Origin: an uncultured Bacteroidales bacterium
GTDB lineage: Bacteria > Bacteroidota > Bacteroidia > Bacteroidales > Muribaculaceae
Assembly (NCBI GenBank): GCA_945829225.1
Contig: CALZTY010000002.1
Span: 9,060-73,059 of the forward strand
Reading direction: 5' to 3'
DNA length: 64,000 nt
Position numbers and translations under genes: made by a program. Below, piece by piece: positions 1 to 17,120 of this stretch; positions within the stretch are counted from its first letter, which is position 1, and every line of letters begins with the position of its first letter. Below the pieces are notes generated by a model. It was not told the origin of the DNA. It did not search any database and was given only the letters and a program-made list of their open reading frames with translations.

Positions 1-112
1 CGGGATTGCTGACGAGGGTGTGCAAGTTGCCGGGGGTAGATACCACCGACTCTGCGCCGGCGCTCAGTGTAGCCACTGACATTGCCGTATACAATAGTAC
101 GTGTTTCAACAT
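1..112 (-). CDS. 5' end (signal peptide) of a secreted protein; the gene continues past the window start
   Basis: Reverse-strand ATG at 110-112 translates to MLKHVLLYTAMSVATLSAGAESVVSTPGNLHTLVSNP..., a signal-peptide-like N-terminus. A TAAATTTG box lies upstream at 146-153. Too short to appear in the ORF track. Confidence 0.35.
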   Translation of the reverse strand, partial: MLKHVLLYTAMSVATLSAGAESVVSTPGNLHTLVSNP

Positions 113-145
113 TATAGATGTAAAATATTTATCGCTTATAAAGCG

Positions 146-153
146 CAAATTTA
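146..153 (-). promoter_or_regulatory. Bacteroidetes -7-type promoter box (TAAATTTG)
   Basis: Reverse complement of caaattta matches TAnnTTTG, 34 nt upstream of the ATG at 112. Confidence 0.4.
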
Positions 154-186
154 CAAATTTTTCCCTTTCCCCGCAAGTTTTCTAAC

Positions 187-597
187 TTAACGTGCCTGTT
201 GTATGAATTCCAACGGTGTAAGGACCGGTATCTTGGAGAAATTAAAATGCTTGATATTCCTTGTTACAATCACGTCACAATTGTTTGATATAGCACAAAT
301 ATATTGGAGTACATCCTCAAAATCTGTCGCATTGATAGTTAATGCTTCCTTTAATTGGGATTCATCCATTTTTAAGATTTCAAACAACTCAGCAAGTCCA
401 TTCATTACACCATATAACTCTTCCTGAGTTCTACCCCTTCTTGCAACGTAGGCGGTATTTGCCATTGATAAGATTGAAACACATAGAAAGGCACGGTTAT
501 CTTCGCCTAATTGTAAGATATCACATGCTTCCTCATATCCTTGTCGCTGAGTAACGAAATCAAGGATGATATTGGTATCAAGAAAAGCTCTTTTCAT
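187..597 (-). CDS. vapC: PIN-domain toxin (VapC-like ribonuclease)
   Basis: 136 aa. N-terminal FLDTNIILDF and C-terminal CDVIVTRNIKHF fit the conserved acidic-residue pattern of PIN/VapC. Its start overlaps the upstream small ORF by 4 nt. Confidence 0.8.
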   Translation of the reverse strand: MKRAFLDTNIILDFVTQRQGYEEACDILQLGEDNRAFLCVSILSMANTAYVARRGRTQEELYGVMNGLAELFEILKMDESQLKEALTINATDFEDVLQYICAISNNCDVIVTRNIKHFNFSKIPVLTPLEFIQQAR

Positions 598-830
598 TTG
601 CTTAAGAGATAAGCAAGGCGTTCATCGCCGGCAATGTCCTCTTGAGTAATACCTGTTCCGCACAGTTTGCGAAGGTTCTCTATTTTGGGAGAATATTTCT
701 TTGTGGTTGTTACCTTAGGAGAGTCGGATTTCCATACTTTTGCCGAAGTAACACCGCGAAGCATCTTGATAGCATTGATGATGCTATCAAGAGCTCGAGT
801 ATTGTCTATTGTTACAATTATTTCTGCCAT
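594..830 (-). CDS. Putative antitoxin partner of the PIN toxin (family not recognised)
   Basis: 78-aa ORF directly upstream of, and overlapping by 4 nt, the PIN gene, which is the classic antitoxin-toxin order. A -7-type box lies at 847-854. Confidence 0.6.
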   Translation of the reverse strand: MAEIIVTIDNTRALDSIINAIKMLRGVTSAKVWKSDSPKVTTTKKYSPKIENLRKLCGTGITQEDIAGDERLAYLLSK

Positions 831-846
831 AATCTTTTGTTTTTCG

Positions 847-854
847 CAAAAATA
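847..854 (-). promoter_or_regulatory. -7-type promoter box (TATTTTTG) for the TA pair
   Basis: Reverse complement of caaaaata matches TAnnTTTG, 17 nt upstream of the ATG at 830. Confidence 0.4.
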
Positions 855-991
855 GTATTTTTTCGGCTAATGACCAAAATATTAGGAAAAAACAACAAAA
901 CTATTGTCTTATGTGTGGGACAAAATTAGGTATTTTTTGTCTTATATACAAGACAATTCGGCAAATTGTGGGTTGAGTGGACAAAGGTTGT

Positions 992-1036
992 AAAAAATGA
1001 GCCATTCTCCGGGCGTGCAGAGACGTCGGAGAATGG
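992..1036 (-). terminator. Intrinsic terminator after the Sel1-repeat gene
   Basis: 10-bp stem ccattctccg (1002-1011) / cggagaatgg (1027-1036), followed on the minus strand by a T-run (plus-strand aaaaaa at 992-997). Confidence 0.5.
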
Positions 1037-1078
1037 GGGAGAGAGGAGAATGGAAAGCACAGTGGAAAAGAGTGTTCC

Positions 1079-2650
1079 TTACGGAACTATCTTGAGGAAA
1101 TCCCAAAGTGCCGTTGCATAGGGAGCGTGGTTGGGGATGAGGAACGGGTCGTGGATAGCACCTTGTTCGATGCAATCCTGGAAGCGGTTGGCAGCGTCGG
1201 CAAACATATATCCGGCGTCCAAAGCATTGGTATAGAAAGATACCGCAGCGTTGATATCCTTGGTTTCACCGAGACCTTCGTAGGCGAAGTTGCCTAAGTT
1301 GATCCAGGCGAGGATGTGTTCACCCTCAATGGCTTTTTTGTAGAGTTCGATAGACTTGGTGTAGTCGGGAGCGATGCCGTCGGTGCCGCGTTCGTAGAGG
1401 CGAGCGAGTTGGAATGTAGCCTCGACGTTGCCCTTGTCAGAGAGTTTGGTGAGTTCCTTGAGACCCTTGGCGATGTCGCGCTTGGGGTTGGCGGGGCTGA
1501 GGGTCATCATCACGTTGAGGAGGTCGACGTTGGCAGCAGCGCAATTCTTGAGGGCTTTGACAGCGGACTTGAAGGCTTTTTCGTCGCCGGCGTTGATAGC
1601 GCGGAGGGCGAGGATGTAGTTGTGGAAGTTGGTGCCTACCAAGTTGGCGGCGTCGCTTGAGGTGAAGAGGTCGGTCATCTGCTGCATATATGAGTTGCGA
1701 GCGGTGAGCCATGAGAGCATATATGCGGCGTCGATGAAGTTGTCTTGACGGGCGGCAACGACGGCGTAATCAAACATTGCGCGGTTGAGGCCCTGGAAGG
1801 CTGCGGTGCGGAGCCAGCGGTTGGCTTCGGACTCGGATTTTTCCACACCGGTGCCATTGCGGTAGAGAGTGGAGACGAAGTACTGAGCGTTGGCGAGGTC
1901 CTTCTCGGCGGCGCGGAGGGCGTAGACGAAGCCCTTGGAGGGGTCGGGAGTTATACCCATGCCGTTGACGAGCATCTGACCGTAGTAGTATTCGCTGACG
2001 GTATCGTGTTGGTCGGCACCTTTCTTGAGCCACTTGAGGGCATCGCGGTATTCCTTGGCGTTGAGGTAAGCGACGCCGGCGCTGCGTGTGGCGAGGATGT
2101 CGCCCTTGGCGGCGAGGAAGCTGTAGTATTTGCCGGCGAGGGCAAAGTTGCGCGAGCAGCCTATGCCGTTGTTGTAGAAGTAGGCGACGGCGGCGCACTC
2201 AAATGTCGACTTGCGGTCGGCTTCGGCGAGGAGGTTGGCAAATAACTCGGGGTTGCCCTTGCGCAGCGAGACGCTGTAGAGTTGCATTGCTCGTACCGAG
2301 TCGGCTTCGACGCCGTGACCATATTGGTAGCAGATGCCGAGGTTGCCTACGGCTTGGTTGTTGCCCATCTCGGCGGCGCGAGCCCACATCTTGGCGGCGA
2401 GGTCAAAGTTTTGCTCGAGACCTTCGCCGGTGTAGTACCATACGCCGAGTTGATTGATTGCGGCGGCATTGCCATTCTCGGCTTCGGCTACTACGGCGAG
2501 GACTTGGTCGCGAGTGAGACCTTCCTCGACAGCAGCTTCTATAGTATCGACCGGTTCGTCGGCTACACGCGCCGGGGTTACAACCTGTGCGTTGCCATAT
2601 AGGGAAGAGAGGAGAACGAGAGAGGCTGATATGTAGCGTAATGTCTTCAT
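1079..2650 (-). CDS. Exported Sel1-repeat (TPR-like) protein
   Basis: 523 aa. Signal peptide MKTLRYISASLVLLSSLYGNAQ. Many ~36-aa Sel1-like units, e.g. AINQLGVWYYTGEGLEQNFDLAAKMWARAAEMGN and AVGNLGICYQYGHGVEADSVRAMQLY. Confidence 0.8.
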   Translation of the reverse strand: MKTLRYISASLVLLSSLYGNAQVVTPARVADEPVDTIEAAVEEGLTRDQVLAVVAEAENGNAAAINQLGVWYYTGEGLEQNFDLAAKMWARAAEMGNNQAVGNLGICYQYGHGVEADSVRAMQLYSVSLRKGNPELFANLLAEADRKSTFECAAVAYFYNNGIGCSRNFALAGKYYSFLAAKGDILATRSAGVAYLNAKEYRDALKWLKKGADQHDTVSEYYYGQMLVNGMGITPDPSKGFVYALRAAEKDLANAQYFVSTLYRNGTGVEKSESEANRWLRTAAFQGLNRAMFDYAVVAARQDNFIDAAYMLSWLTARNSYMQQMTDLFTSSDAANLVGTNFHNYILALRAINAGDEKAFKSAVKALKNCAAANVDLLNVMMTLSPANPKRDIAKGLKELTKLSDKGNVEATFQLARLYERGTDGIAPDYTKSIELYKKAIEGEHILAWINLGNFAYEGLGETKDINAAVSFYTNALDAGYMFADAANRFQDCIEQGAIHDPFLIPNHAPYATALWDFLKIVP

Positions 2651-2703
2651 GATTATTTTTTTTGTTGGGAGTGTGGGTAAAATGAGGTGGCGAGGAGTGA
2701 AGA

Positions 2704-3402
2704 TTAGAGGTCACCAATGAAGGGGTCGTCGGCGATGACGTCGTCGGGACAGTCTACGGCTACTTCAGCGTCGTCAATAATCTCGGTGGTAACCACTTCT
2801 TCGTCGATGAATTGGTCGCCGATGATGATTTCGTTTTCGTCAACGATGGGTTCGTCGACTTGTTCGCCCTCGACGATGGTGCCCACGGCTTGGTTGGGGT
2901 CGATGTCGCCGGTAATATCATTGATGTTAACAGCGATAGGCTCTTCTTCGATGGGTTGGTTGGGAGTTTCGTCGCTGCCGCGGACGTCTTGGATAGCCTG
3001 GAGTTCTTCTTCGTTTGCCTCAGCCTCGGTCTTGTCGTTTGCGGTGGGGACGGGTTCTTCGTCGAGATCTTCATCGAGGGGACCTTCGGGGTCATGTTGC
3101 TGCCGGGGATGCTGTTGGTGGGCGGTGTGGCGAGCAGCGGGAGCCTCGTCTTCTTCAAAGACGATTTCCTCGATTTCTTCCTCCTCGGCGGGTTGACCGT
3201 TGGTGGCGGCGTAGATTGCTCCGGCGCCTGCTACACCTACAGCGGCTGCACCGGCGATGGCAGCGCCACGCTTGTAGGATTTACCCTTTTCGGGCTTCTC
3301 TTCCTCGTTGAATTGCTCGGTGAGGTCTTTTTCAACTTCGTTTACAGTACCGTTGATATCGTTGTTGTATGCCGAAGGATGGATGGTTGAGTCAAGTTTC
3401 AT
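2704..3402 (-). CDS. Single-pass membrane protein with a strongly acidic C-terminal (predicted extracytoplasmic) region
   Basis: 232 aa. About 50-aa N-terminal tail, Ala/Gly-rich TM helix AAIAGAAAVGVAGAGAIYAA, then a D/E-rich region ending DDVIADDPFIGDL. Same architecture as 4026-4892. Family not recognised. Confidence 0.6.
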   Translation of the reverse strand: MKLDSTIHPSAYNNDINGTVNEVEKDLTEQFNEEEKPEKGKSYKRGAAIAGAAAVGVAGAGAIYAATNGQPAEEEEIEEIVFEEDEAPAARHTAHQQHPRQQHDPEGPLDEDLDEEPVPTANDKTEAEANEEELQAIQDVRGSDETPNQPIEEEPIAVNINDITGDIDPNQAVGTIVEGEQVDEPIVDENEIIIGDQFIDEEVVTTEIIDDAEVAVDCPDDVIADDPFIGDL

Positions 3403-3430
3403 AGTCGTATTATTTTTGAGTTTTTAGTTG

Positions 3431-4021
3431 TTATTTTTTTGTGAAAATCATTGATGTCTTGCCCATGACGATGGTGTCGCCAAATTTGAGTTGTAATTTT
3501 TCGCCGTTGTGCAATTCCTTGCCGTTGACCTTGATGGGGTTGCGGCTCTTGATGACGGTGAAGAAGAAGAGGGCGTTGCCGTTGGCACTCTTCTCGATGT
3601 CGATAGAAGCGCAGCGGCGCGAGATAGTGGGGTCACCTGAGATTTGAATGGTGCTTGGGCAAGTGATGTCTTCGCGTCCGATGGTGTAAGAGCCGAAACC
3701 GTTGATGTCAAAGTTCTTGGTGGTGGAGGGGAGAAGTCGGCGGTGGATATTCACCTTGAGGGTAGCGCTGGGGGCGATGATGCTGTCGGGGTCGAGGATG
3801 ATGGTACCCGAGCCGGTGGTAGCCACGATGGTCTTATTGAATTTGTTCTCGGCGGGCTTTTCCTCGCCCTTGTCGGCTTTACCATCGAATTTTACGGCGA
3901 AGACTTTGCCGCAGCCCGGGCAGGTGAATTTGATAGTAGCGGGCTTGTCGGGCTCTTTGGTGATGAGAACCTTGCCGCATGCCGGGCATTTGAATGCTTT
4001 CTGTCCTTCCTTGAGAGCCAT
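3431..4021 (-). CDS. Zinc-ribbon plus FHA-domain protein (cytoplasmic)
   Basis: 196 aa. CPACGK...CPGCGK is an MJ0042-like double CxxC zinc ribbon. C-terminal FHA-like domain: YTIGRED...ISRRCASI...KSRNPIKVNGKEL...GDTIVMG. Confidence 0.7.
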   Translation of the reverse strand: MALKEGQKAFKCPACGKVLITKEPDKPATIKFTCPGCGKVFAVKFDGKADKGEEKPAENKFNKTIVATTGSGTIILDPDSIIAPSATLKVNIHRRLLPSTTKNFDINGFGSYTIGREDITCPSTIQISGDPTISRRCASIDIEKSANGNALFFFTVIKSRNPIKVNGKELHNGEKLQLKFGDTIVMGKTSMIFTKK

Positions 4022-4025
4022 GGCG

Positions 4026-4892
4026 TTATGCTAAGTCGTCGGTGATGATGATGTCTTGGTCGTCGATTTCAACGTCAACGTTGTCGGTGGTCTCGTCGTA
4101 GGCGAGGTATCCGTCTTCGGCTTGTTCCTGTGCTTGAGCGACGGTGAAGCCGGCGCCGTTGATGTCGTAAGAGCCGAATTGGGGGTCGTCGTAGACGGCT
4201 ACGTCCAATATACCGTCACCGTCGAGATCGACTGCTACGCCCATATCGCCTTCGTAGTCGATGAAAGTGGCTTGAGTGGTGGCGTTACCCTCGATGTCGT
4301 AGACAACCTCTACATCGGTGAATTCGAGCATCGAAACACCGTCGAGGTCGTTGGGGTCGACTTCCTCGCCGGCGATAATGGCATCGGCGATTTCACCGGG
4401 GTCGGAGACGGTGACTTGGGGGTCGACTTCTACCGGAGTCTCAGCGGGGGGAGTGGTAGGGTTGACGGGAGTAGGGGTCTCACCGGGGATAGCGGGGTTA
4501 TTGGGGTCGACGGGAGTTTCAGCGGGGGGAGTAGTGGGGTTGACGGGAGTAGTGGTCTCGCCGGGGGTAGAGGGAGTAGCGACGGGGTTCACGCCGGGGG
4601 CTGTAGCACCGGGAGTGGTGGTGTTATCGCCGGGAGTGGTGGTGGGGTCTTGACTGTTGTCGGTGGGTGTGCGGTGTGCACCTACGTTTTCGGCTTCTTG
4701 GATTTCGATGCCATCGATTTCCTCGGCATCGTTGGCTTGGTTGACAGCCCAAACACCTGCGGCACCTACGCCGGCACCTGCGGCGGCTGTTGCGGCGGCT
4801 GCTACGCCTACATTCGACTTGTTGCCGTTTTTCTTGGGTTGTGTTGCCTCGGCTGCGGGGTCAACAAATAAGGTTGCGTCAGTTGTTGCCAT
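4026..4892 (-). CDS. Single-pass membrane protein with a Pro/Thr-rich spacer and an acidic C-terminal domain
   Basis: 288 aa. Short N-terminal tail, TM helix VGVAAAATAAAGAGVGAAGVWAV, a 26-aa tandem repeat (PVNPTTPPAETPV...), and an acidic tail with a DLDGDGILD Ca-binding-like motif. A TAACTTTG box lies upstream. Confidence 0.6.
   Translation of the reverse strand: MATTDATLFVDPAAEATQPKKNGNKSNVGVAAAATAAAGAGVGAAGVWAVNQANDAEEIDGIEIQEAENVGAHRTPTDNSQDPTTTPGDNTTTPGATAPGVNPVATPSTPGETTTPVNPTTPPAETPVDPNNPAIPGETPTPVNPTTPPAETPVEVDPQVTVSDPGEIADAIIAGEEVDPNDLDGVSMLEFTDVEVVYDIEGNATTQATFIDYEGDMGVAVDLDGDGILDVAVYDDPQFGSYDINGAGFTVAQAQEQAEDGYLAYDETTDNVDVEIDDQDIIITDDLA
4435..4566. repeat. 78-bp in-frame tandem duplication inside the 4026-4892 CDS
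   Basis: ggagtctcagcggggggagtggtagggttgacgggagtaggggtctcaccgggg (4435-4488) recurs with a few substitutions at 4513-4566. It encodes GETxTPVNPTTPPAETPV twice. Confidence 0.8.
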
Positions 4893-4944
4893 ATCTTTTA
4901 AGTTTTTTGAGTTTTTGTAATTGGGTTGTTTATCGTTTACATTG

Positions 4945-4952
4945 CAAAGTTA
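4945..4952 (-). promoter_or_regulatory. -7-type promoter box (TAACTTTG), internal to the cluster
   Basis: Reverse complement of caaagtta, 53 nt upstream of the ATG at 4892, within the only long (156-nt) gap in the cluster. Confidence 0.4.
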
Positions 4953-5048
4953 AGGCTTCGTCGCGACCTTTTGCAAATATTTTGCGAGGTCTTTGACGAA
5001 GCCTTTATAATTTTGGACGAAACGGGCTGTTTCGCTGACGAAGAAGAA

Positions 5049-5789
5049 TTACTCTTCGGGATACTCAATCAAGATGGTATCGTGCATGGTTGAGGGGGCG
5101 ATGAGCACGGGGTGCTGTGAGCCGTCGGAGCGTCGTACACAGTCCTTATATATGTGCTTGAAGAGTTCCATGATGGTGACTTTGCGGTCGTGGTTGGTGT
5201 CGGCTTTGCCACGGTATCCGGTGAGGAGCCCGACGGTGAAGAAAGACTTCTGATAGTACCCGGCGGCGATGCTATATTCCTCGGGTCGGCAGCCGAGGAA
5301 GTAAGCGTGCCCCTTGACGGCTTCGATGCCGTTGTACCAATTGGAGGCGTCACCGACTTCGCCGCCGATGGTGCCGGCATGGCAAGCATCGATGAATACC
5401 ACTACCTCGCCTGCCTTGGATGTCGAGAGCAGTTGTACCAATTGGTCGTAGGGGTACTGGGAGTCGTAGCAATACAGCCCGCCGGGGTAGCCGTGACCGC
5501 TGTAGTAGAATATGATGCGGTCAGAGGCTTGTGCGCGATTGACGATGGCTGAGAGTTTCTCCTTGATGTTATCGGCATTGGCGTATGACGAGGTGAGGAG
5601 TGTGACGTCCTTGGTGTGAGTGAGGAGGATGTCACGGAATGCCTTGGCATCGTTGGTGGGTTGAGTGAGGTTGAGATCGGGGTCGCCGTAGTTGGAGATG
5701 CCTACCACGAGGGCAAATGTACGGGCTTGGGTGTTGAGGGTGCACAGAGCCGCTATGGCGACAAGCAGTGCGGTGAAGATGCGTTTCAT
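5049..5789 (-). CDS. Exported caspase-family (peptidase C14) protein
   Basis: 246 aa. Signal peptide MKRIFTALLVAIAALCTLNTQA. Catalytic His context IFYYSGHGYPGG and catalytic Cys context VVFIDACHAGT, which are the metacaspase-type HC-dyad motifs. Confidence 0.8.
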   Translation of the reverse strand: MKRIFTALLVAIAALCTLNTQARTFALVVGISNYGDPDLNLTQPTNDAKAFRDILLTHTKDVTLLTSSYANADNIKEKLSAIVNRAQASDRIIFYYSGHGYPGGLYCYDSQYPYDQLVQLLSTSKAGEVVVFIDACHAGTIGGEVGDASNWYNGIEAVKGHAYFLGCRPEEYSIAAGYYQKSFFTVGLLTGYRGKADTNHDRKVTIMELFKHIYKDCVRRSDGSQHPVLIAPSTMHDTILIEYPEE

Positions 5790-5828
5790 TGTCTTATTAT
5801 TTATAATGAGGAGATTGTTGTCGATTAA

Positions 5829-6482
5829 TTACATAGCCTTGCACACCGAGCACTTGCAGTTGCGCACGTCGTAGTCGGAGAGGACACGCCAGCACTTGGG
5901 ACACAGCAGGAATTTGGCTCGGGTTTCCTTGATGCGCTTGAGTCGCTCAGAGTCGCTACGATATTTGAGTCTCAGCAAGCCGGGTGGCAAGGCGGTAGCC
6001 ACACCACAGAGGGCGAGCATCAGCATGGGATCAATGGGGGCGAAGATGCGCACGATAGCCACCAAAGATACGCAGATGATGGGGGCTATAATCATATTGA
6101 GGTTGTGCTTCTTGACCACAGCGGCATGCTCTTCCTCGGCTTTCTTAAAGCGCTTGTCCATAGCACGCAGGTATTTGAACTCGTAGGAGTAGTCGTTGGG
6201 TGCCACGAGTTGGTGAGCCATAAATGTGAAGGACTTGGCATTCTCGGGACCGAGGCGCAGCACATCGTTGGGCTTGATGTGGCAGTTGACTACCAAGCGG
6301 AAGTCGCCGGCGCTGTCGCGCAGGTACACGCCATTACCCTTGCCCCCCTTGAGGTCCTCGAGGTACCAGTTGTCGGAGTGCTCATCGACGGTGATGCGCA
6401 CATGCTCGTTGTGAACAAATTGTCGGTCTTGTCCTATTTCAAATTTTTGGTCGCCACTGCGGCCGACGGTGAATACAGGCAT
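5829..6482 (-). CDS. FHA-domain membrane protein with a C-terminal zinc ribbon
   Basis: 217 aa. N-terminal FHA-like domain (FTVGRSGD...NEHVRI...YLEDLKGGKGNGVYL). Two hydrophobic helices (IIAPIICVSLVAIVRIF and MLMLALCGVATALPPGLL). C-terminal CPKC...CKCSVC. Confidence 0.7.
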   Translation of the reverse strand: MPVFTVGRSGDQKFEIGQDRQFVHNEHVRITVDEHSDNWYLEDLKGGKGNGVYLRDSAGDFRLVVNCHIKPNDVLRLGPENAKSFTFMAHQLVAPNDYSYEFKYLRAMDKRFKKAEEEHAAVVKKHNLNMIIAPIICVSLVAIVRIFAPIDPMLMLALCGVATALPPGLLRLKYRSDSERLKRIKETRAKFLLCPKCWRVLSDYDVRNCKCSVCKAM

Positions 6483-6499
6483 AAAATTTTTACGAAGAA

Positions 6500-6886
6500 T
6501 TATACAGCGCCTTCAGCCTTGGGTGCCGCGGCGTATCGTTTGGTGAACTTCTCCTTGAGCAATTTCAACAACGCCTTGGACACCGGCAACTTGTGCTGGT
6601 GGCTGTCGATATCGCTGAGCACCAAGTATTGCTTCAGGAGGTTAATGTTGCTGAGGTAGTTCTCATTGATGATGAGACTGCGACCCAATCTAACGAATGA
6701 GGATGTACCCTTAGCCAAAGTTGCCGAAAGCAGTTTCTCTACCCCGGATAGCCCCATATTCAGTGCGAGCGCCTGACCGCTGATATAGGTCAAGCGTGTG
6801 TAGTTGCCGTTGGCTTGGAAGTAAGCAATCTTATCTAAGTCCAGTATCAGCAATTCGTCTCGTGTATTTATACAGACTTTTTTCAT
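6500..6886 (-). CDS. Stand-alone LytTR-family DNA-binding protein (no receiver domain)
   Basis: 128 aa. LILDLDKIAYFQANGNYTRLTY...SFVRLGRSLIIN matches the LytTR domain pattern. First gene of the cluster. Confidence 0.75.
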   Translation of the reverse strand: MKKVCINTRDELLILDLDKIAYFQANGNYTRLTYISGQALALNMGLSGVEKLLSATLAKGTSSFVRLGRSLIINENYLSNINLLKQYLVLSDIDSHQHKLPVSKALLKLLKEKFTKRYAAAPKAEGAV

Positions 6887-6918
6887 AGCATTACTGTTTG
6901 TATTAGGAATTTATGTCG

Positions 6919-6926
6919 CAAAGTTA
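6919..6926 (-). promoter_or_regulatory. -7-type promoter box (TAACTTTG) for the LytTR gene
   Basis: Reverse complement of caaagtta, 33 nt upstream of the ATG at 6886. Confidence 0.45.
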
Positions 6927-6971
6927 GCAAAATTTTCAAATAATAAGCATAATTTTCATAAAAAATGGCAT

Positions 6972-7008
6972 AAAAATAATGAAAGTGCGCTACTTCGCAG
7001 TAACGCAC
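6972..7008 (-). terminator. Hairpin plus T-rich tract downstream of tonB
   Basis: gtgcgctac (6985-6993) / gtaacgcac (7000-7008) form a 9-position stem with one mismatch. The minus strand continues tttcattattttt. Confidence 0.45.
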
Positions 7009-7104
7009 CTTCCTCATAACCAAAATTCAAGTATATATTGTGAGTCTAACAAAACGTTATCACTTAAGATTATTCTTGAATTGCTCCAAATCATTAATAC
7101 GGTG

Positions 7105-7112
7105 CAAAGTTA
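7105..7112 (-). promoter_or_regulatory. Orphan -7-type box (TAACTTTG) about 100 nt upstream of the 6985-7008 hairpin
   Basis: Reverse complement of caaagtta. It lies between the tonB stop and the terminator hairpin. Confidence 0.3.
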
Positions 7113-7209
7113 CGCCTATAAAATGCAATCTACAACAAAAAATATGTAAATAATCATTAATAATATTTAACAAACAACAGATATTTTGCTATAAATCGCT
7201 GATTTGTAA

Positions 7210-8010
7210 TTACTTGAAGGTGTAGGTAATGATGGCGATGGATCGATCGGGGGCGTTGTTGTCGGCGCGGGTGTATCGGCGTGCTTTTACCTCGTTGATG
7301 ACGGCTTGTCGCAGTGCGGGGTCGGCACCGGCGGGCGGAGTGCCGTCGAGGAGGGTGACCTCGGTGGCGCGCCCGGTGCGGTCGATGACGGCGCGGACGC
7401 GGATAGAGCCGGTGGTGGTGGCGGGTATGCGGGCATACCGCGGCACTACCCAGCCACCGGTGACTTCGCCGTTGGCATTGCCGTTGAAGGCATTTGACGA
7501 GCCGTTAGGGTTGCCCGAGTTGCCGGGTGTGGCACCGTTGTTGGAGGTGTTGTTGTTGCCGGCAGCGCGGTCGAAGGCATTGCGAGTGGCAGAGGAGACA
7601 CGGCGGCGAGCCTCAGCCTCGGCGAGTTCCTGCTGAGTGGGGCCGGTGGGTTGTGGGGGAGTAGCCTGTTGCTGTACCGGTGATTGGTTGCGCGAGGTGG
7701 CAGGTGTCGGGGGCGCTCCGGCGGCGCCGGCATCGCGGAGGTCATGCCCGGTGGTAGGCTCGGGCACCGAGTGGTTGTTGGCAGTGATGTCGTTGTATGA
7801 CGGCGAGGCGCTCTCGGCGACGGTGGGTATGGCGACGGGAGCCTCGACGATGTCAAAGAATTGGTCGTCGACCAGAGCCACAGAGTGGTCGTGTTGCGGC
7901 GGCCACTCGCGCTGCGAGGGTATGGCGAGGTGGAGGCACATCATCAGCACCACAGCCGCCACGCCGATAAGGGTGGTGAGCGTCAGGGCGATGTTGCGCG
8001 GGTTATTCAT
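7210..8010 (-). CDS. tonB: TonB-family energy transducer
   Basis: 266 aa. N-terminal TM anchor, Pro-rich spacer and C-terminal TonB-like domain. Overlaps the exbD stop by 8 nt and follows exbB-exbD. Confidence 0.7.
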   Translation of the reverse strand: MNNPRNIALTLTTLIGVAAVVLMMCLHLAIPSQREWPPQHDHSVALVDDQFFDIVEAPVAIPTVAESASPSYNDITANNHSVPEPTTGHDLRDAGAAGAPPTPATSRNQSPVQQQATPPQPTGPTQQELAEAEARRRVSSATRNAFDRAAGNNNTSNNGATPGNSGNPNGSSNAFNGNANGEVTGGWVVPRYARIPATTTGSIRVRAVIDRTGRATEVTLLDGTPPAGADPALRQAVINEVKARRYTRADNNAPDRSIAIITYTFK

Positions 8011-8440
8011 GGGCTACGGGGATTTGGGAGTCGCCGACGCGAGTGGCGAGGACCATCTTGATAGAGTTGGCGGCACCGAGATTGAGGACTTCGACCACCT
8101 TGCCATATTGCACGTCGACATCGGCATAGACGGCGATGGAGGCATCGGCGCCGGCGGTGTCGGCATAGGCGGTGAGGCAGGGCAGGAGCGAGTCGGCAGC
8201 CACGGGCTCGGGCGAGGCATTATTGAAGCCTATGTAGTAGGCGCCGTCGCGGTCGATGAACACGCGAGTGACGGGCTTGGAGGGGCTTTGCTCGACACCC
8301 TCGGGGAGGGTGACGTCGATGGCTGTGGGGAACACATAGGTCGAGGTGACCATGAAGAACACCAGCAACAGGAAGATGACGTCGGTCATCGAAGCCATCG
8401 AGAATGTGGCGAGCATATCGTTGGGGCGCTTGAGAGCCAT
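8003..8440 (-). CDS. exbD: ExbD/TolR biopolymer transport protein
   Basis: 145 aa. Single N-terminal TM (VIFLLLVFFMV) and an ExbD-like periplasmic domain. Confidence 0.8.
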   Translation of the reverse strand: MALKRPNDMLATFSMASMTDVIFLLLVFFMVTSTYVFPTAIDVTLPEGVEQSPSKPVTRVFIDRDGAYYIGFNNASPEPVAADSLLPCLTAYADTAGADASIAVYADVDVQYGKVVEVLNLGAANSIKMVLATRVGDSQIPVAHE

Positions 8441-8453
8441 AGCGGTAGGGATG

Positions 8454-9077
8454 TTAAGCCGGCTCGTTGAGCAGGTCCATAAATTCCATGGTGCGAGCCT
8501 CGAGGAGTTTCATCACCTTGTTGACGCGAGCCACGAGATAGTTGTAGGCAAAGAGGGCGGCAATACCGACGATGAGACCGGCAACTGTGGTCGACAGGGC
8601 GGTGTAGATACCGCCGGCAAAGGTGCTAATCTGGGCAGCCGAGCCGGCATTGGCAATCTGGAAGAAAGCCTGCACCATGCCGATAACGGTGCCGAGGAAG
8701 CCGAGCATGGGCGCGGCGGCGGCAGTGGTGGCGAGCCATGGGAGACCCTTGGAGAGGGTCGACACCTCGATGTTGCCGGTATTCTCGATAGCGACGAGCA
8801 CGTCGTTCATGGGTCGTCCGATGCGGCTGATGCCCTTGTCGATGAGGCGAGCACAGGGGTTGTCGGTATTCTTGCACAGGTTGTGGGCGCTCTCGAGTTC
8901 GCCCTCGTGGATGTAGTCGCGGATGCGCTTCATGAAGTCGTCGTCGTAGGTCGATGCGCGACGGATGACTGTGAAGCGCTCGATGAAGATGTAGATGGAG
9001 ATGAGGGCGAGGAGCGACAGCGGTATCATAATCCAGCCGCCGTCGACGAATAATGACCAAATAGAGGGTGAAGACAT
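8454..9077 (-). CDS. exbB: MotA/TolQ/ExbB proton-channel protein
   Basis: 207 aa, three TM segments, conserved PMLGFLGTVIGMVQAF region. Confidence 0.85.
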   Translation of the reverse strand: MSSPSIWSLFVDGGWIMIPLSLLALISIYIFIERFTVIRRASTYDDDFMKRIRDYIHEGELESAHNLCKNTDNPCARLIDKGISRIGRPMNDVLVAIENTGNIEVSTLSKGLPWLATTAAAAPMLGFLGTVIGMVQAFFQIANAGSAAQISTFAGGIYTALSTTVAGLIVGIAALFAYNYLVARVNKVMKLLEARTMEFMDLLNEPA

Positions 9078-9106
9078 ATCGAGAAATTTTTAAGAATATT
9101 TAATAT

Positions 9107-9838
9107 TTAGCGAAGACAAGCGAGGTAGCGATGGATGGTCTCTTCGAGCCCGAGGTAAAGGGCGTCGCAGATAAGGGCATGCCCGATAGACACCTCGTGA
9201 AGCCAAGGCATGGCTTGGTGGAAGTATTGGAGGTTTTCGAGCGAGAGGTCGTGTCCGGCATTTATCCCCAAGCCGAGGTTGTGAGCGACGCGTGCAGCCT
9301 CGATATATGGGGCGACGGCGGCGGCGGGGTCGGAGGGGTAAAGGTCGGCATAAGGCTTGGTGTACAACTCGATGCGGTCGGTGCCGGTGGCGGCGGCGGC
9401 GCGGATGTTGTCGGGGTCGATATCAACAAATATAGATGTGCGGATGCCCGAGTCCTTGAGGCGCTCGACGATGGAGCACAGGAAGTCGTGATTGGGAGCC
9501 ACGTTCCAGCCGGCAGAGGAGGTGAGGGCGTCGGGGCTATCGGGCACCAGAGTCACCTGCTCGGGGCGGTTGCGTCGCACCAATTCCATAAAAGTCTCAT
9601 CGGGGTAGCCCTCAATATTGAACTCCACCTTGACGATAGGGCGCAGGGCGAAGACGTCGGCGCGGCGGATGTGGCGCTCGTCGGGGCGAGGATGGACGGT
9701 GATGCCTTGTGCGCCGAAGGCTTGGCAGTCGGCAGCCACTTGCTCCACCGAGGGACGATTTTCGCCTCGCGCGTTGCGCAAAGTCGCTATCTTATTGATA
9801 TTTACGCTCAGATGCGTGGTTGGTTTGGTCTGGCTCAC
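9107..9838 (-). CDS. pdxJ: Pyridoxine 5'-phosphate synthase
   Basis: 243 aa. [16 protein letters not shown] at the N-terminus and [13 protein letters not shown] are typical of PdxJ. Confidence 0.9.
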
Positions 9839-9884
9839 TTTTAATATATTTTCTTCGTTTTAGATGTTAATCAGAAAAAATTCG

Positions 9885-9892
9885 TATATTTG
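9885..9892 (+). promoter_or_regulatory. -7-type promoter box (TATATTTG)
   Basis: Matches TAnnTTTG, 39 nt upstream of the ATG at 9931. It overlaps the GTG start used by the ORF track. Confidence 0.4.
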
Positions 9893-9930
9893 TGACGATT
9901 TCAGAATACAAATTTAGTCATAAAAATAGA

Positions 9931-10287
9931 ATGACGAAAGAAAAAGTATCAAAAGACGCAAAATTTGAGAGCGCCGAGGTGAATTTTCCGCCTGTCGAGG
10001 AGAGTAGCCGCCTGCTGATAGCGTGCCGCCCGAGCGACTATATGGCATCGGAGATAGCCCGCGCTGTCGAGGATGCCGATGCTCGCTTGCTCAACCTCAA
10101 TGTCACAGCCATCGACAGCGACGGCTTGACAGTGACGGCATTGCGAGTTGCACGCCGCGACCCGCAGCCGGTGGCGCGGTCGCTTGAGCGCTATGGCTAC
10201 ACCATCGTGGAGTGCTCGGCTCCACATGCCGATGACGATACTCTCCGAGCACGATATGACGAACTGATGCATTACCTATCCATTTGA
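9931..10287 (+). CDS. Small conserved hypothetical protein (possibly an ACT-like regulatory fold)
   Basis: 118 aa counted from ATG 9931. Lies between pdxJ and nadK, with only 4 nt before nadK. No confident family recognition. Confidence 0.45.
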   Translation: MTKEKVSKDAKFESAEVNFPPVEESSRLLIACRPSDYMASEIARAVEDADARLLNLNVTAIDSDGLTVTALRVARRDPQPVARSLERYGYTIVECSAPHADDDTLRARYDELMHYLSI

Positions 10288-10291
10288 AAAT

Positions 10292-11146
10292 ATGAAAATA
10301 GCCATCTACGGCTCGCGTCGACAGGAGCCTTACCTGCAGTATATACGCCAATTCTTTGATGCCCTGGCACAGATGGGCGATGAGGTCATTCTGCACTCCA
10401 AGATATACGATTATTTGTGGCAAACGTTACCCGAGGTGTTGCCGCGAGTGAGTCGTGTGGTGTCGGGAGGCGATTTCGATGCCGATGTGGTAGCATGCAT
10501 CGGCGGCGACGGCTCGTTCCTGCGCACGGCAGCGTGGGTTGCCGACAAGGAGATCCCCATCATAGGCATCAACACCGGGCATCTGGGATATATGTCATCT
10601 ATTGCTGTGGAGGACCTGCCGGGTCTGCCACAGTTGCTGCGCCACGCTGATATGAGCGTGGAGGAGCGGTCGCTGGTGGCTGTCGACTGCCCGGGTATCA
10701 CCGGGTGGCAGTATGCCCTCAACGAGGTGGCGATTACCAAGGGCGACGGTGCCTCGATAATCAATATTCACGCAAGTATAGATGGCTGTGAATTAGCCAC
10801 ATATCGTAGCGATGGCTTGTTGATAGCCACGCCTACGGGGAGCACCGCCTACAACCTGTCGGTGGGTGGACCCATCGTGCAACCCTCGGCGCCGGTATTT
10901 GTGCTGTCGCCTATCGCGGCACACTCGTTGTCGATGCGCCCGCTGGTGGTTGCCGACCGCTCGCTGCTCACGTTTACCTGTACCAGCCGCGCGCGCAACT
11001 TCCGCATTGCCCTCGACGGGCGCTCATACCCCATCGACTTGGACACTGCCGTGGGCATCACTCGTGCGCCATTTGTCGTCAAGGTGGCAATGGCTCCCGG
11101 CTCCAACTTTGCGCGCACCCTGCGCAATAAACTTGCCTGGGGATAG
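10292..11146 (+). CDS. nadK: NAD kinase
   Basis: 284 aa. GGDGSFLR and TPTGSTAYNLS motifs of ATP-NAD kinases. Confidence 0.9.
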   Translation: MKIAIYGSRRQEPYLQYIRQFFDALAQMGDEVILHSKIYDYLWQTLPEVLPRVSRVVSGGDFDADVVACIGGDGSFLRTAAWVADKEIPIIGINTGHLGYMSSIAVEDLPGLPQLLRHADMSVEERSLVAVDCPGITGWQYALNEVAITKGDGASIINIHASIDGCELATYRSDGLLIATPTGSTAYNLSVGGPIVQPSAPVFVLSPIAAHSLSMRPLVVADRSLLTFTCTSRARNFRIALDGRSYPIDLDTAVGITRAPFVVKVAMAPGSNFARTLRNKLAWG

Positions 11147-11191
11147 CCCGACGAAAGCAAGCAGTGCAAAAAATTTTTTTTGATATAAAAA

Positions 11192-11219
11192 GAGGGTGTG
11201 TCAATTTTGACACACCCTC
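11192..11219. terminator. Perfect 11-bp hairpin between convergent nadK and the LRR gene
   Basis: gagggtgtgtc (11192-11202) / gacacaccctc (11209-11219) with loop aatttt. T-run on the minus-strand side. Confidence 0.6.
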
Positions 11220-11239
11220 GGGATAATGAGATTCAGGGA

Positions 11240-14200
11240 CTATTTCACTGCGAGTTTTGTAACTTGGTTGCCAACTTTGACAATGTAGAAACCCGGGGTT
11301 ACGGCGACAGTAGCGTTTGAGGCTTCTAATGAAGCGACGTGCAGACCATTTGCGGAGTAAATAATGATTGAGGTTGGTGCCTCGGCAACAACATTGATGT
11401 TGCCGTTTGAAGCAAATACGCGTGCGTTGCCTGCATCTACATCCTCAATGCCTGTAATAATACCATTGTTTGCCAATGCTGTGAATTTCAAAGCATTGCC
11501 ATCTTTCGACACAATACCCGTGAAAGAACGCCATCCGCTTTCACCCAATTGGAGAGTAGCAGGGTCGTAATATGCCTTCATAGTAAGAGGTGCTACAGCC
11601 TGCTGTGCAGACCGGAGAACGAAATAGTTATCCTCGGTGTTTATATCCTCCGTACTCATATAACCTGTAATTGAACAATATTCAGCCGGCTGCGGAGCCA
11701 CGAGCCAAATGTTTCTCACTTCATCATTGTCTGCATAGATATTGAAATTAGCCACGCTGAATGCGTTGTAACTCATGCTGCTATCTTTAGTGGAAACGGT
11801 GCCTTCCGGGAATGAGATTATCGGATATTCGTCGTTGGAAACTACAGTTGCAATGTTGCCACTTTCAATTTCCTTTCCTACAAAGTCGGAAGTCAAGCCG
11901 GAGATAGCCACCCAATCTTCCTGGTTGAAGTCAGCATCATTATCGCTTCCCGGTTCAGATTTTTTATCTTCATTGAAAGTGTTCTTAGATGAGCCACTGT
12001 TGCCCATGGTAGAGGCATAGAGATAAGTGCCGTCGAAATAATGTCCAAATAGATTTGTGTTGATTCGATAACACTCACCGGCATTTGCGGTCAACACTTT
12101 GTCAAGACCATTCTTGGTGTCGGCATATGTATCTGTAATCTCAATGGTTAAGCATGGGATTACGACACTGTTTTCTGCCGGTTCAATTGATGGCATTGAA
12201 GCAGGAGTTTCAGATTCATATGGTGAAGCGAAGATATAGAGATATTTGTCAGTAGGGGTTGAAAATTCATATTTCAAGCCATCAAGTTCATCGACAAATA
12301 CAGGCGTTCCGTCTCCAAGGAGGAGAGTAAGACGAGCATTGCCGTACCTAAAGAATGAGTTAAAGGCAATGCTACCTGTACCTTTAACTTTTACTGCGAT
12401 ACCATTGAAATTGCTATATACGTCCTGACTTCCCTCCACATCTCTATTGAATTGGGCAACATCCTCAATCGACGACGTTCTATTGAGTACTAACCCACCA
12501 TACTGATTATATCCGCTTTTGTTGTCAGTGATGCTGTAGTAGACGTTATCTATTACCACATTGTACAAAGTTTCATATCCGCTGAGGGTTGTGAAATCCA
12601 CATTTACTGTTCCTTGCGGGATAGTTGAGATATCGTATACGCGACTTGGTTCCGGTTCGGGAGCCTCGTAGGTATATTCAAAAGAAACAGGTTCGCTACA
12701 AGAAGTATCATCGCTGACATAAGCCACCACTTTGCAAGTAGAATTAATTGTTATTGGCGTGGAGTAAGTCTTGACGGTATGAACAGCAGAGGCATCGTCG
12801 CCTTCTCCAACAATGTAATAATAAACAGTGCCAACATCGTTAGGATTAGTGAGTGCCAACGCAAACGGGTTGTTAAACACGCATGTCTCGCGAGAAGGTA
12901 TAGGAGCATCAAAAATGCGCTCACCGAATCCTTGCTTGATTCTATCTTCGAAATATGACCATGGAGCATATGATTTATATGCATCAAGACTTCCAAACGG
13001 CACATAAAGATAACCTTTCGAATAAACTTCATTGTCGAATGCGTTGTCAGGACAATCATCGCCATTGAGCGGTAAGGGTCCCTTGTTGATTATTGTATTA
13101 ATATTTGTGCAACCGGCAAATACGTTATTGCCAATGGAGGTCAAACTTTCGGGGAGCGTAACGCCTGTGAGACCCGTGAGGCCTTGGAATGTGCTTTCTG
13201 CGACAGACACTACATCGCTTGAATTGTATTGTCCGGGAATCTCAAGCATACCGATGAAATCCTCATTGAGAGCGTAAGGCGATTTGCCGACGGAGTAGCC
13301 GCCGGTCACTTCGGTATAGGCGAACAAAGACGGGTGCTTGTAATGGGTGAACTTGCCCCAAAATGCGTCAGTGGTAAATGTGCTATATTTATCGTCGGGC
13401 ACTTCAATCAAAGTGTTAGCGAAATGCCACTCATCAAAAGCATTTTCGGTTTCCACAGTCGGCAGAGTGACTGACGAAGGGTTGAAACTGATTGATGACA
13501 ATGAACTGCATCCGGTGAATGCCAAGGTGCCTATTGATGTGACATTAGCCAAGTCAAGGCTCCGCAAGGCGGCGCAGCCTCTGAAAGCAGTTTCGCTAAC
13601 TACAAAGGCTTGCTCCGGGATAGGCACTTCTGTAAGGCTCTCGCAACCGTCAAAGCAACTATAGCCGATTTTATTCAACTCAGGGCTACAAATGGAGGTA
13701 AATTTTTGGAGACTTTTACATCCTACGAAGACACTGTCCATTTCATTTCTCTCGCCGGTTCCCTTGAGGCGATAGACCTCGACAGTCTCCAAGTTATCGC
13801 ACCATCTAAACGCATCGGGAGTAATTTCGATATAGTCGTCGCCGGAGCCGTTAATAGTAACGCTTTTGAGAGCCTTGCAATCTTGGAATGTATAGAGGCT
13901 TGTCCTGCCAAATTGAAAATTACCATTGGTTGTTACGCTTTTTAGATTTTCGCAAGCAGCAAATGTGTAATAGCCCTCCACGAATATCTCATCTGATGTA
14001 ACTGCGGTGAGGTCAAGATTTTCGATGCCGGAACGATAGAATGCCTGTTGATCGATTCTTTTTGTATTTGCAGGAAACTCAATCGACTTGAGGTTTGAAC
14101 ACCAACTGAAAGTAGCCATGGGTATAATAAAACCATCGCTAGAGTTTTTTGGCAATATTACCGTTTGTAGACTACTGCAACCGTCAAAAACATTATTGTA

Positions 14201-14836: not shown

Positions 14837-14891
14837 ATGATTTTTTACGGTTATGAGTATCGAAAACGAATAATCAATACCACCTTTTCGG

Positions 14892-14899
14892 CAAAGTTA
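14892..14899 (-). promoter_or_regulatory. -7-type promoter box (TAACTTTG) for the LRR gene
   Basis: Reverse complement of caaagtta, 56 nt upstream of the ATG at 14836. Confidence 0.4.
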
Positions 14900-15010
14900 C
14901 ACATAAACTTTGATTTAATTTTTCCATTTGGAAAGTTTTTTTGAATGGAGAGCGTAATTATCACATTTTTTCCATGAACGCTTTAATTTTCACCCACATA
15001 ATAGACAAAT

Positions 15011-16450: not shown

Positions 16451-17008
16451 TTAGTCGTTAATATCGATGTTTTTCAGAGCATCCCATCGGGGGTCGGAGG
16501 CGGCTTCCACATCGTCGGTGTCGATGTCGTCGAGGTCTATGTCCTCATCGGTGAGCCCGGTCTGGTGCTTCTTGAGCAGAGCGCTCATCTGTCGGTTGCA
16601 CTTGCCCATGGGGTGGACGTGCTTGATGGGGATGGCGAGCACGACGGTGTCGTAGAGCATATAAGCCACGTTGAGGTCGTTGTCGGCGGTGGGGATGATG
16701 AGGGTGTCATCCGAGGAGTCGTCATAGTCATCGCCATACTCTACGGTGATGTCGTAGGTGGTGTCGATGGGTATCTCCAGGTCGTCGAGGCAACGGTCGC
16801 AGAGCATGGTCACCGAACCGCGGAGGGCGAAGTGGAGGCGATAGGCGTCGTGGTTGTACTCGACGGAGAGGTGAACATCCACGTTGGCATCGCGCGCGTC
16901 GTCATACTCCATATTGGCAAAGAAAGCCTTGTCGAGTTTGTAGTCAAACTCGTGGACTCCCTTGTGCAACGACTTCAGGGGCAACTTGTATGCTGAGAAC
17001 TTTCCCAT
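16451..17008 (-). CDS. YceD/DUF177-family protein
   Basis: 185 aa, acidic, with a CDRC motif. Sits directly upstream of rpmF, as is typical for yceD. Confidence 0.75.
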   Translation of the reverse strand: MGKFSAYKLPLKSLHKGVHEFDYKLDKAFFANMEYDDARDANVDVHLSVEYNHDAYRLHFALRGSVTMLCDRCLDDLEIPIDTTYDITVEYGDDYDDSSDDTLIIPTADNDLNVAYMLYDTVVLAIPIKHVHPMGKCNRQMSALLKKHQTGLTDEDIDLDDIDTDDVEAASDPRWDALKNIDIND

Positions 17009-17031
17009 AACGAGGTGCGTGAAAAACTTTG

Positions 17032-17039
17032 CAAAGTTA
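17032..17039 (-). promoter_or_regulatory. -7-type promoter box (TAACTTTG)
   Basis: Reverse complement of caaagtta, 24 nt upstream of the ATG at 17008. Confidence 0.45.
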
Positions 17040-17120
17040 CGGATAATCTTGCAAATGACAAAGTTTTAATTCAAAATATTGTTAATTTGCGCGTTATTAA
17101 GCCTCTAAACACCCAATAAT

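Follow-up and report, generated by a model that had tools for sequence, protein, structure and literature searches.

A conserved and undescribed Bacteroidales operon joining LytTR, FHA, exported caspase-fold and Sel1-repeat proteins

The DNA discussed here is a stretch of 64,000 nucleotides (nt), referred to as the window, from an uncultured Bacteroidales bacterium of the family Muribaculaceae (assembly GCA_945829225.1, contig CALZTY010000002.1, positions 9,060 to 73,059 of the forward strand). Close to its start, the list of open reading frames (ORFs) places seven co-directional genes on the minus strand between positions 1079 and 6886, with gaps of 17, 39, 156, 4, 28 and 53 nt in transcription order, in exact agreement with the genes and gap sizes given in an initial annotation of this DNA. 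In this order, the genes encode a LytTR DNA-binding protein (gene 1), an FHA protein with a membrane hairpin and a zinc ribbon (gene 2), an exported caspase-fold protease (gene 3), an acidic single-pass membrane protein (gene 4), a zinc ribbon-FHA protein (gene 5), a second acidic single-pass protein (gene 6) and an exported Sel1-repeat protein (gene 7). Comparison of related loci indicates that these genes are a conserved functional module; the operon is real, conserved and undescribed, and it combines known kinds of signalling. It is held with moderate confidence that this is a Bacteroidales-specific signal-transduction operon, a variant of the LytTR regulatory systems that works through FHA domains and phosphothreonine recognition and that includes an exported protease and a Sel1-repeat protein. 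Compared with the overall model, confidence is higher for the link between the LytTR protein and the internal promoter P2 and lower for the role of the protease. Public annotation gives the cluster genes generic names or lists them as "hypothetical protein", and Pfam assigns domains to four of the products (LytTR, Peptidase_C14, zinc ribbon plus FHA in gene 5, and Sel1). All domain calls of the initial annotation were upheld, with the FHA domain of gene 2 being visible only by a family profile and a structure model.

Conservation of the gene order is the first line of evidence for the module. The window comes from a metagenome-assembled genome and matches L012 at 99%. A scan with one genome per GTDB species recovered 24 loci, and all of them fall in the Bacteroidales, namely in the Muribaculaceae, Bacteroidaceae, Prevotellaceae, Odoribacter and Marinilabiliaceae. 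Two cultured carriers are among these, Phocaeicola coprophilus An818 and Muribaculum caecicola NM86_A22. A LytTR homologue adjoins gene 2 in 21 of the 24 species loci, and LytTR, gene 2 and caspase genes are likewise adjacent in 21 of them; proteins of the gene 4 and gene 5 types come next in most loci, and a Sel1 protein is found in 14 related loci. The complete seven-gene order is also present in L009, L016, L019 and L020, at 41-51% gene 2 identity, and synteny holds down to 23-30% gene 2 identity in several Bacteroidales families. The genes are thus co-conserved well beyond close relatives, which was the neighbourhood check that the initial annotation had proposed. Since synteny is maintained in 24 species-level loci, chance juxtaposition is excluded.

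The second line of evidence is a cis-element in the 156-nt spacer between the caspase gene and gene 4. Three direct repeats lie there upstream of a -33/-7 promoter (P2), the last of them ending about 16 nt ahead of the -33 TTTG. In the intergenic DNA of the window, three repeat matches were observed versus 0.52 expected, none of 100 shuffles reached three, and paired sites of this kind occur in this spacer only. Across the related loci, the repeats stand at constant distances of 48, 69 and 90 nt upstream of the -7 box. Strict repeat pairs were found in 10 of 22 loci, versus 0.005 in shuffles, and strict pairs elsewhere within the loci are rare and scattered. The site at -69 has the consensus GTTTCGTCAAAAAA, with a column conservation of 80-100% in 21 loci. 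In L029, which has no LytTR gene, the repeats and the promoter are likewise missing. The internal promoter box reported in the initial annotation is indeed present and is the -7 element of P2.

In LytTR regulatory systems, the binding sites are 9-bp direct repeats with a 12-bp spacer, located directly upstream of the -35 element (PMC6193735). The array in the cluster shows the direct-repeat arrangement of these systems (repeats of about 9 bp, spacers of 11-13 bp, upstream of -35), and the analogy that the initial annotation drew with them is strengthened by the presence of LytTR-type phased repeats inside the cluster. In addition, the repeat core TTCGTC is identical to the 3' six bases of the 9-bp AlgR site CCGTTCGTC. 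The most economical reading of these sequence features is that the cluster would be expressed as two transcription units, with P1 driving the LytTR gene, gene 2 and the caspase gene, and a LytTR-activated P2 driving genes 4-7. The three-repeat pattern was also used in a metagenome scan, which returned at least 120 loci, nearly all unrelated and mostly 21-nt periodic coding repeats, and none of these at least 120 loci encodes the system.

The -33 element of P2 is enclosed in a 54-nt palindrome that contains the proximal repeat and an inverted GACGAA, located between -33 and -7. This palindrome is limited to a close clade; besides the window, it was noted in L013, L014, L016 and L018. The RNA of the spacer has a predicted folding energy of -38.1 kcal/mol (z = -5.96). 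The sequence of the inner stem of the hairpin varies between species with its complementarity kept, and RNAalifold finds the outer stem conserved in sequence with almost no covariation. Candidate roles of the hairpin are those of an operator, a LytTR site in a second orientation or a terminator of the P1 transcript. The coordinates of these elements and of the seven genes are listed in Table 1.

Table 1. Features of the seven-gene cluster and its boundary, in transcription order (positions in the window; aa, amino acids; TM, transmembrane segment)
Feature	Position	Strand	Evidence or remark
Terminator-like hairpin + T-run, 14-pair	6981-7012	-	Upstream boundary of the cluster; separates ExbB-ExbD-TonB-like genes
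Promoter P1, Bacteroidetes -7 box TAACTTTG	6919-6926	-	Located 40 nt before the start codon of gene 1
Gene 1, stand-alone LytTR DNA-binding protein, 128 aa	6500-6886	-	Pfam LytTR 4.8e-11, residues 11-114
Gene 2, FHA + membrane hairpin + zinc ribbon protein	5829-6482	-	
Gene 2 FHA domain, N-terminal	aa 1-88; nt 6219-6482	-	Beta-sandwich in the AlphaFold2 model
Gene 2 two-helix hydrophobic hairpin	aa ~130-170; nt 5973-6095	-	AlphaFold2 model and hydrophobicity
Gene 2 C-terminal 4-Cys zinc ribbon	aa 194-214; nt 5841-5903	-	C194, C197, C211 and C214 invariant
Gene 3, exported caspase-fold C14 clan CD protease	5049-5789	-	Pfam Peptidase_C14 1.4e-21
Gene 3 predicted signal peptide, Sec-type	aa 1-22; nt 5724-5789	-	
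Direct repeats TTCGTCA / TTCGTCC / TTCGTCA	5036-5042, 5015-5021, 4994-5000	-	21-bp spacing; candidate LytTR sites
54-nt palindrome / hairpin enclosing the -33 element	4952-5005	-	Proximal repeat + inverted GACGAA at 4957-4962
Promoter P2, -33 TTTG and -7 TAACTTTG	4974-4977 (-33); 4945-4952 (-7)	-	Both position-conserved in nearly all related loci
Gene 4, acidic single-pass protein	4026-4892	-	Alignment of 22 homologues
Gene 4 N-terminal tail T7-L-F-V	nt 4863-4874	-	Candidate FHA ligand
Gene 4 predicted TM, Ala/Gly-rich	aa 28-50; nt 4743-4811	-	
Gene 4 acidic C-terminal domain, DLDGDGILD loop	aa ~176-262; nt 4107-4367	-	D/Y/G columns invariant
Gene 5, cytoplasmic zinc ribbon-FHA protein	3431-4021	-	Pfam FHA 8e-9 + zinc-ribbon matches
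Gene 5 4-Cys zinc ribbon	aa 12-37; nt 3911-3988	-	
Gene 5 FHA domain	aa 112-187; nt 3461-3688	-	Canonical phospho-Thr residues G-R, S-R-R, N-P
Gene 6, second acidic single-pass protein	2704-3402	-	Predicted TM aa 46-68; nt 3199-3267
Gene 7, exported Sel1-repeat protein	1079-2650	-	Pfam Sel1 x6, 8.5e-41
Gene 7 predicted signal peptide	aa 1-21; nt 2588-2650	-	

The product of gene 1 is proposed to be the output regulator of the system. Pfam finds neither a receiver nor any further domain in it, so that it is a stand-alone LytTR protein, free of receiver and sensory domains, as in the LytTR regulatory systems. As it has no receiver domain, a histidine kinase partner is not to be expected. At most of the related loci, the LytTR gene is likewise preceded by a -7 box, at about -35 to -67.

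Gene 2 is proposed to encode a membrane tether or inhibitor of the LytTR protein, by analogy with the membrane partners of known LytTR regulators. The two genes are separated by 17 nt in the window and overlap or abut in L007, L018, L023 and L024. Pfam does not call an FHA domain on the gene 2 protein of the window; precomputed FHA matches are present for its homologues, and a 20-member family profile has the FHA domain of ArnA as its best solved-structure match (2.4e-5). The AlphaFold2 model, with a predicted local distance difference test score (pLDDT) of 91.6, shows a beta-sandwich, a long coiled helix, a hairpin and a C-terminal zinc knuckle, and the top Foldseek matches of this model are exclusively FHA domains. 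In the family, R8 and G51 are invariant and N50 is nearly so. Of 1.84 billion cluster representatives, about 194 belong to the family at E<1e-10.

The second FHA protein, the product of gene 5, has the canonical Arg, Ser and Asn residues for phosphothreonine binding, and its GR, SRR and NP motifs are conserved in all 23 homologues. A candidate ligand for such a domain is found in gene 4. The homologues of gene 4 share the order of an N-terminal [D/E]-T-x-x-[I/L/V/F] motif, a Lys/Arg patch, an Ala/Gly-rich segment, a variable Pro/Thr/Glu linker and an acidic C-terminal domain, which in the family alignment spans about 110 residues and contains a DxDGDGxxD loop. The form T-x-x-hydrophobic is that of the classic FHA ligand. 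Of the 22 gene 4 homologues, 17 have T-x-x-[ILVFM] among their first 10 residues, versus 22% of control ORFs, and the conserved N-terminal T-x-x-[ILVF] is a candidate FHA ligand. The motif persists in the clade that lacks a kinase gene at the locus, and this suggests that the genomes in question have a kinase gene at another place.

The ectodomain of gene 4 in the window contains 1 Lys/Arg versus 53 Asp/Glu among 239 residues. Neither gene 4 nor gene 6 belongs to a family in Pfam or NCBIfam, and a Foldseek search of the gene 4 domain model against the PDB gave no match at E<=0.001. A homologue search with gene 4 returned 7 matches, swamped by low-complexity words, and the C-terminal domain alone returned 1. 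Gene 6 has a layout like that of gene 4 except for the conserved globular domain, which it lacks; only its N-terminal and membrane part is matched by the gene 4 profile, and gene 6 is dispensable in some relatives. The topology proposed for both proteins is based on the pattern of Lys/Arg before and acidic residues after the membrane segment, and on its conservation. The Sel1-repeat protein of gene 7 is proposed to be a periplasmic sensor or adaptor module.

Gene 3 encodes a mature enzyme of about 225 aa with a single domain. It has the motifs SGHG (His99) and DACHAG (Cys136), the latter being a metacaspase-like D-x-C-H-x-G with Asp134 placed two residues ahead of the Cys. Across 20 homologues, His99 and Cys136 do not vary, and they align with the catalytic dyad of solved clan-CD enzymes (GSU0716, PDB 3bij; legumain; metacaspase), as the dyad called in the initial annotation should. 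The signal peptide was upheld too, as its AxA ending immediately before RT and the first strand is conserved across the homologues. Metacaspases have an Asp two residues before the catalytic Cys and cleave after a basic P1 residue, and because the Asp is at the same place here, the sequence suggests a basic P1 preference. A lipoprotein form of the caspase was considered and rejected, as there is no conserved lipobox Cys. The enzyme resembles orthocaspases, metacaspases and GSU0716 in its clan-CD fold, aligned His-Cys dyad and D-x-C-H-x-G motif, but differs from them in being short and single-domain, in its conserved Sec signal peptide and in the constant operon setting of its gene.

The initial annotation stressed that the usual partners of FHA and LytTR domains are missing, and this is correct for the lineage of the window: there is no kinase, PP2C, histidine kinase or receiver gene inside the cluster. 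It does not hold for the system at large: within the cluster or next to it, 13 related loci have a gene for a PP2C phosphatase, for a membrane Hanks-type Ser/Thr kinase or for both. On account of these 13 loci, the system belongs to kinase/phosphatase/FHA signalling and is not a case of FHA domains that work without a kinase. In the distant versions, gene 5 is followed by a PP2C of about 305 aa and then by a Hanks-type kinase, about 490 aa long, whose membrane helix lies near residue 340. In L016, which belongs to the kinase-less clade, a PP2C and a kinase are found 3-4 kb downstream. Phocaeicola coprophilus An818 (L032) has a rearranged cluster with two kinases of kinase-TM-Sel1 architecture (12537-14144 and 16710-18485), followed by several more Sel1 proteins, and this fusion ties the Sel1 module to the extracytoplasmic sensor side of the kinase. 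Other variants carry PEGA-FGE-sulfatase, WG-repeat or WYL proteins.

Taken together, the following mechanism can be proposed for the variant LytTR regulatory system. P1, whose box and gene order are observed, may express the LytTR protein, gene 2 and the protease constitutively. The gene 2 protein would keep the LytTR protein inactive at the membrane in the manner of HdrM or BrsM, as suggested by adjacency, translational coupling and analogy. A kinase and a PP2C, presumably encoded elsewhere in this genome, would set the phosphorylation of the conserved Thr in the cytoplasmic tail of gene 4, and the FHA domain of gene 5, of gene 2 or of both could read its state; here the motif, the FHA residues and the linkage are observed and the pairing is what we infer. 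Periplasmic input, the weakest step, may come from the Sel1 module, from the acidic and possibly Ca2+-binding ectodomains and from cleavage by the protease. The freed LytTR protein would then bind the three phased TTCGTCA repeats and activate P2. Activation of P2 would raise the expression of genes 4-7, and of the PP2C and kinase in relatives, creating a feed-forward loop. The most economical guess for the role of the output is envelope monitoring.

The composition of the cluster could not be placed in any described pathway by the initial annotation, and this remains so: no match was found in the literature, where nothing specific on this domain combination was found, nor in curated family libraries or defence models. 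In its working, the cluster comes closest to a LytTR regulatory system joined to a Hanks kinase/PP2C/FHA cassette, without strict membership of either. Like HdrRM and BrsRM (PMC6193735), it has the gene of a stand-alone LytTR activator directly ahead of that of a membrane protein, with the two nearly coupled, and 9-bp-type repeats with a 12-bp spacer (21-bp phase) before a promoter. In those systems, however, the partner is a DUF2154 or similar protein and there are two repeats, whereas here the partner has FHA and zinc-ribbon domains, and three repeats stand at an internal promoter with no direct autoregulation. Five further conserved genes, including that of the exported protease, and the kinase/PP2C pair in relatives also set the cluster apart. 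Strict membership fails on two counts, as the cluster's own promoter has no autoregulatory site and the membrane partner is unrelated.

Hanks kinase/PP2C/FHA cassettes are represented by the mycobacterial PknB-PstP-FhaA-FhaB/FipA and the type VI PpkA-PppA-Fha1/TagH sets. The 13 related loci are similar to these in combining, in one operon, a membrane kinase with an extracytoplasmic sensor, a PP2C and FHA readers, one of which is membrane-anchored. A candidate target tail containing a Thr is another shared feature. The window lineage, in contrast, lacks kinase and PP2C in cis and so falls outside such cassettes; other differences are the LytTR output, a Sel1 rather than a PASTA sensor, the invariant exported caspase and the absence of wall-synthesis or secretion genes. 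ArnA sits in a transcriptional circuit controlled by a kinase and a phosphatase. Gene 5 shares with ArnA of Sulfolobus acidocaldarius (PDB 5a8i) the order of a zinc ribbon followed by an FHA domain, but the cluster has no vWA partner (ArnB), is bacterial and membrane-linked, and has a LytTR output and periplasmic components.

Two further systems resemble parts of the cluster. AlgR of Pseudomonas aeruginosa binds the 9-bp site CCGTTCGTC, and algD has sites in the same orientation and one inverted site near the promoter (PMC4064291), similar to the inverted GACGAA between -33 and -7 in the close clade described here. AlgR is, however, a receiver-domain response regulator of a two-component system with widely spaced sites, in contrast to the tight 21-bp array of the cluster. 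The ExoR-ExoS/ChvI system likewise has a periplasmic Sel1-repeat protein in a trans-envelope signalling context; here there is no histidine kinase or response regulator, and relatives fuse Sel1 to Ser/Thr kinases instead. The comparison with ExoR made in the initial annotation fails at the level of family membership, as gene 7 scores 18 bits against the ExoR NCBIfam cut-off of 450, and an ExoR-like proteolytic switch would be pure analogy.

Several observations weigh against a variant LytTR regulatory system working through FHA domains. LytTR regulatory systems have their repeats at their own promoter, giving positive autoregulation, whereas in the cluster they precede gene 4, and a search of the DNA ahead of the LytTR gene found no phased TTCGTCA repeats, neither in the window nor in 23 loci. 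The gene 2 protein has no Pfam domain in common with known LytTR regulatory system inhibitors, and in the FHA domain of most family members a His substitutes for the canonical phosphate-binding Ser. A six-frame search found no kinase or PP2C in the 64-kb window. The initial annotation proposed that the FHA domains read the N-terminal tails of both acidic proteins, which is supported for gene 4 by its Thr motif and not for gene 6, in which the motif is absent (2 of 10 homologues). The hydrophobicity of the Ala/Gly-rich membrane segments is no more than marginal in genes 4 and 6 (Kyte-Doolittle 1.47 and 1.71), and the AlphaFold2 model of gene 4, built on a shallow alignment, has a beta domain at 187-261 with a pLDDT of 81-87 and is poor in the remainder. 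Besides the protease, the system has no obvious effector. Lastly, LytTR binding, the contact between gene 2 and the LytTR protein, gene 4 phosphorylation and the substrate of the protease are all steps that we infer.

A more far-reaching view, which we put forward tentatively as possible, is that the cluster represents a new class of trans-envelope signalling in gut Bacteroidales, in which the exported caspase-like protease and the Sel1 sensor would act in the periplasm on acidic anchors that bind cations, and the outcome, recorded as phosphorylation of a Thr in the cytoplasmic tails of the anchors, would be read by FHA proteins, one of which tethers a LytTR activator.

It is rather unlikely that the cluster is instead an envelope or cell-surface assembly module, in which a structure in the periplasm or at the surface would be assembled or reshaped by genes 4 and 6, the Sel1 protein and the protease. 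In this case, the FHA proteins would be phospho-dependent scaffolds, like FhaA and FhaB/FipA in mycobacterial wall synthesis and division or TagH/Fha1 in type VI secretion, and the LytTR protein would be a local activator. Genes 4-7 are the sole detected putative LytTR targets and hence may be the output rather than signalling parts, and the extremely acidic ectodomains with their DxDGDG loop would suit a structural role. The FHA protein of L010 and L033 touches the family of YscD cytoplasmic domains. Gene 2 has weak NCBIfam matches to FhaB/FipA and to the type VI secretion protein TagH, but these are far under their cut-offs (19.5 vs 125 and 16.9 vs 120). Moreover, the cluster has no conserved association with biosynthetic enzymes, ATPases, transporters or secretion components, and the downstream partners vary by lineage (Sel1, WG-repeat, PEGA-FGE or unknown proteins), which is typical of sensor modules.

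The initial annotation also offered a conflict or abortive-infection role. In such a system, phage attack would be sensed by a kinase/FHA module, and the caspase would then be set free to kill the cell or to act in its defence. This is improbable, and the alternative has found little support. The NCBIfam model nearest to gene 3 is indeed the EACC1-associated type (caspase_w_EACC1), but the score is 66 against a cut-off of 140, and the generic caspase model is the sole PADLOC match, with no further PADLOC component, no effector-associated domain and, in any locus, no NTPase or vWA gene. At some loci the neighbours would fit such a role (an integrase with DUF4435/AAA_21 in L007, WYL/WCX in L010 and a PIN toxin pair in the window); however, the guanine-cytosine (GC) content of the cluster, 0.52-0.60, matches that of its flanks, the low-GC PIN toxin pair downstream excepted, and tblastn found no relatives of gene 2 on plasmids or phages. 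The conserved Sec signal peptide implies that the protease acts outside the cytoplasm, and an ordered transcription-factor output is unusual for abortive-infection systems. Finally, the reading that unrelated genes merely lie side by side, with repeats due to chance or to another regulator, for which it could be said that the flanks differ between genera, that some loci lack gene 6 or the Sel1 gene and that the three-repeat pattern occurs in unrelated metagenomic DNA too, is effectively refuted by the synteny, with the order kept in 24 loci down to 23% identity, and by the repeat footprint, which is phase-locked to the promoter in about 20 loci and far above shuffled expectation.

LytTR regulatory systems are widespread, and their input signals are unknown (PMC6193735). 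The operon offers a LytTR system whose membrane partner carries a recognizable input domain (FHA), and its relatives name upstream enzymes (kinase and PP2C) and a candidate sensor (Sel1). If the more far-reaching view is true, this would be the first link of Hanks-type phospho-signalling, and of regulated proteolysis, to LytTR regulatory systems. The operon would also explain what an exported bacterial caspase homologue and two unannotated protein families do. A concrete cis-element and a candidate phospho-site are supplied. The hosts are abundant gut commensals (Muribaculaceae and Phocaeicola) in which Ser/Thr-kinase signalling is poorly studied, and with cultured carriers available, genetics should be feasible.

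Some loci show variations of their own. In L030, two PEGA + FGE-sulfatase proteins (8339-9481 and 10687-11778) and an HRDC-domain protein are inserted next to the kinase. In L007, from an Odoribacter metagenome-assembled genome, the cluster ends after the caspase gene. Next come genes for a tyrosine integrase, for a protein of 295 aa and for a DUF4435/AAA_21 protein (11473-14940), an arrangement suggesting that a mobile or defence element has cut the cluster short.

Genes flanking the cluster are different in each other species. A link to the upstream TonB/ExbBD genes was considered and rejected, as these neighbours are not kept at other loci. A Rfam scan of window positions 1-12000 gave no match at E<=1. 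A second Bacteroidetes -7 box (TAACTTTG) is located at 7105-7112 on the minus strand, about 90 nt before the hairpin and T-run at 6981-7012, and the region of about 6981-7112 (minus strand) could encode a small RNA of about 110 nt or could merely be the terminator of the TonB-like operon.

Upstream of the cluster region, the minus strand encodes a 1198-aa BspA-type surface protein with leucine-rich repeats (LRR_5; 11240-14836), and contigs of the same species have another LRR_5 gene directly downstream of the Sel1 gene. No phased repeat site was found before the LRR_5 genes flanking the cluster in the window. In the metagenome scan, the sole promoter-phased match was L055 (JAEEGK010009816.1, 5829-5877), where three perfect phased TTTCGTCA repeats with a correctly spaced -7 box precede the gene of a 1580-aa BspA-type LRR_5/dockerin surface protein. 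This arrangement hints that a LytTR protein of similar specificity may control LRR surface proteins elsewhere. The Sel1 gene of the window is separated from the next LRR gene by a pair of low GC content (0.37-0.40), consisting of a PIN-domain toxin gene (187-597, minus strand; PF13470, 3e-14) and an upstream partner of 78 aa (594-830) that overlaps it by 4 nt, which looks like a toxin-antitoxin insertion.

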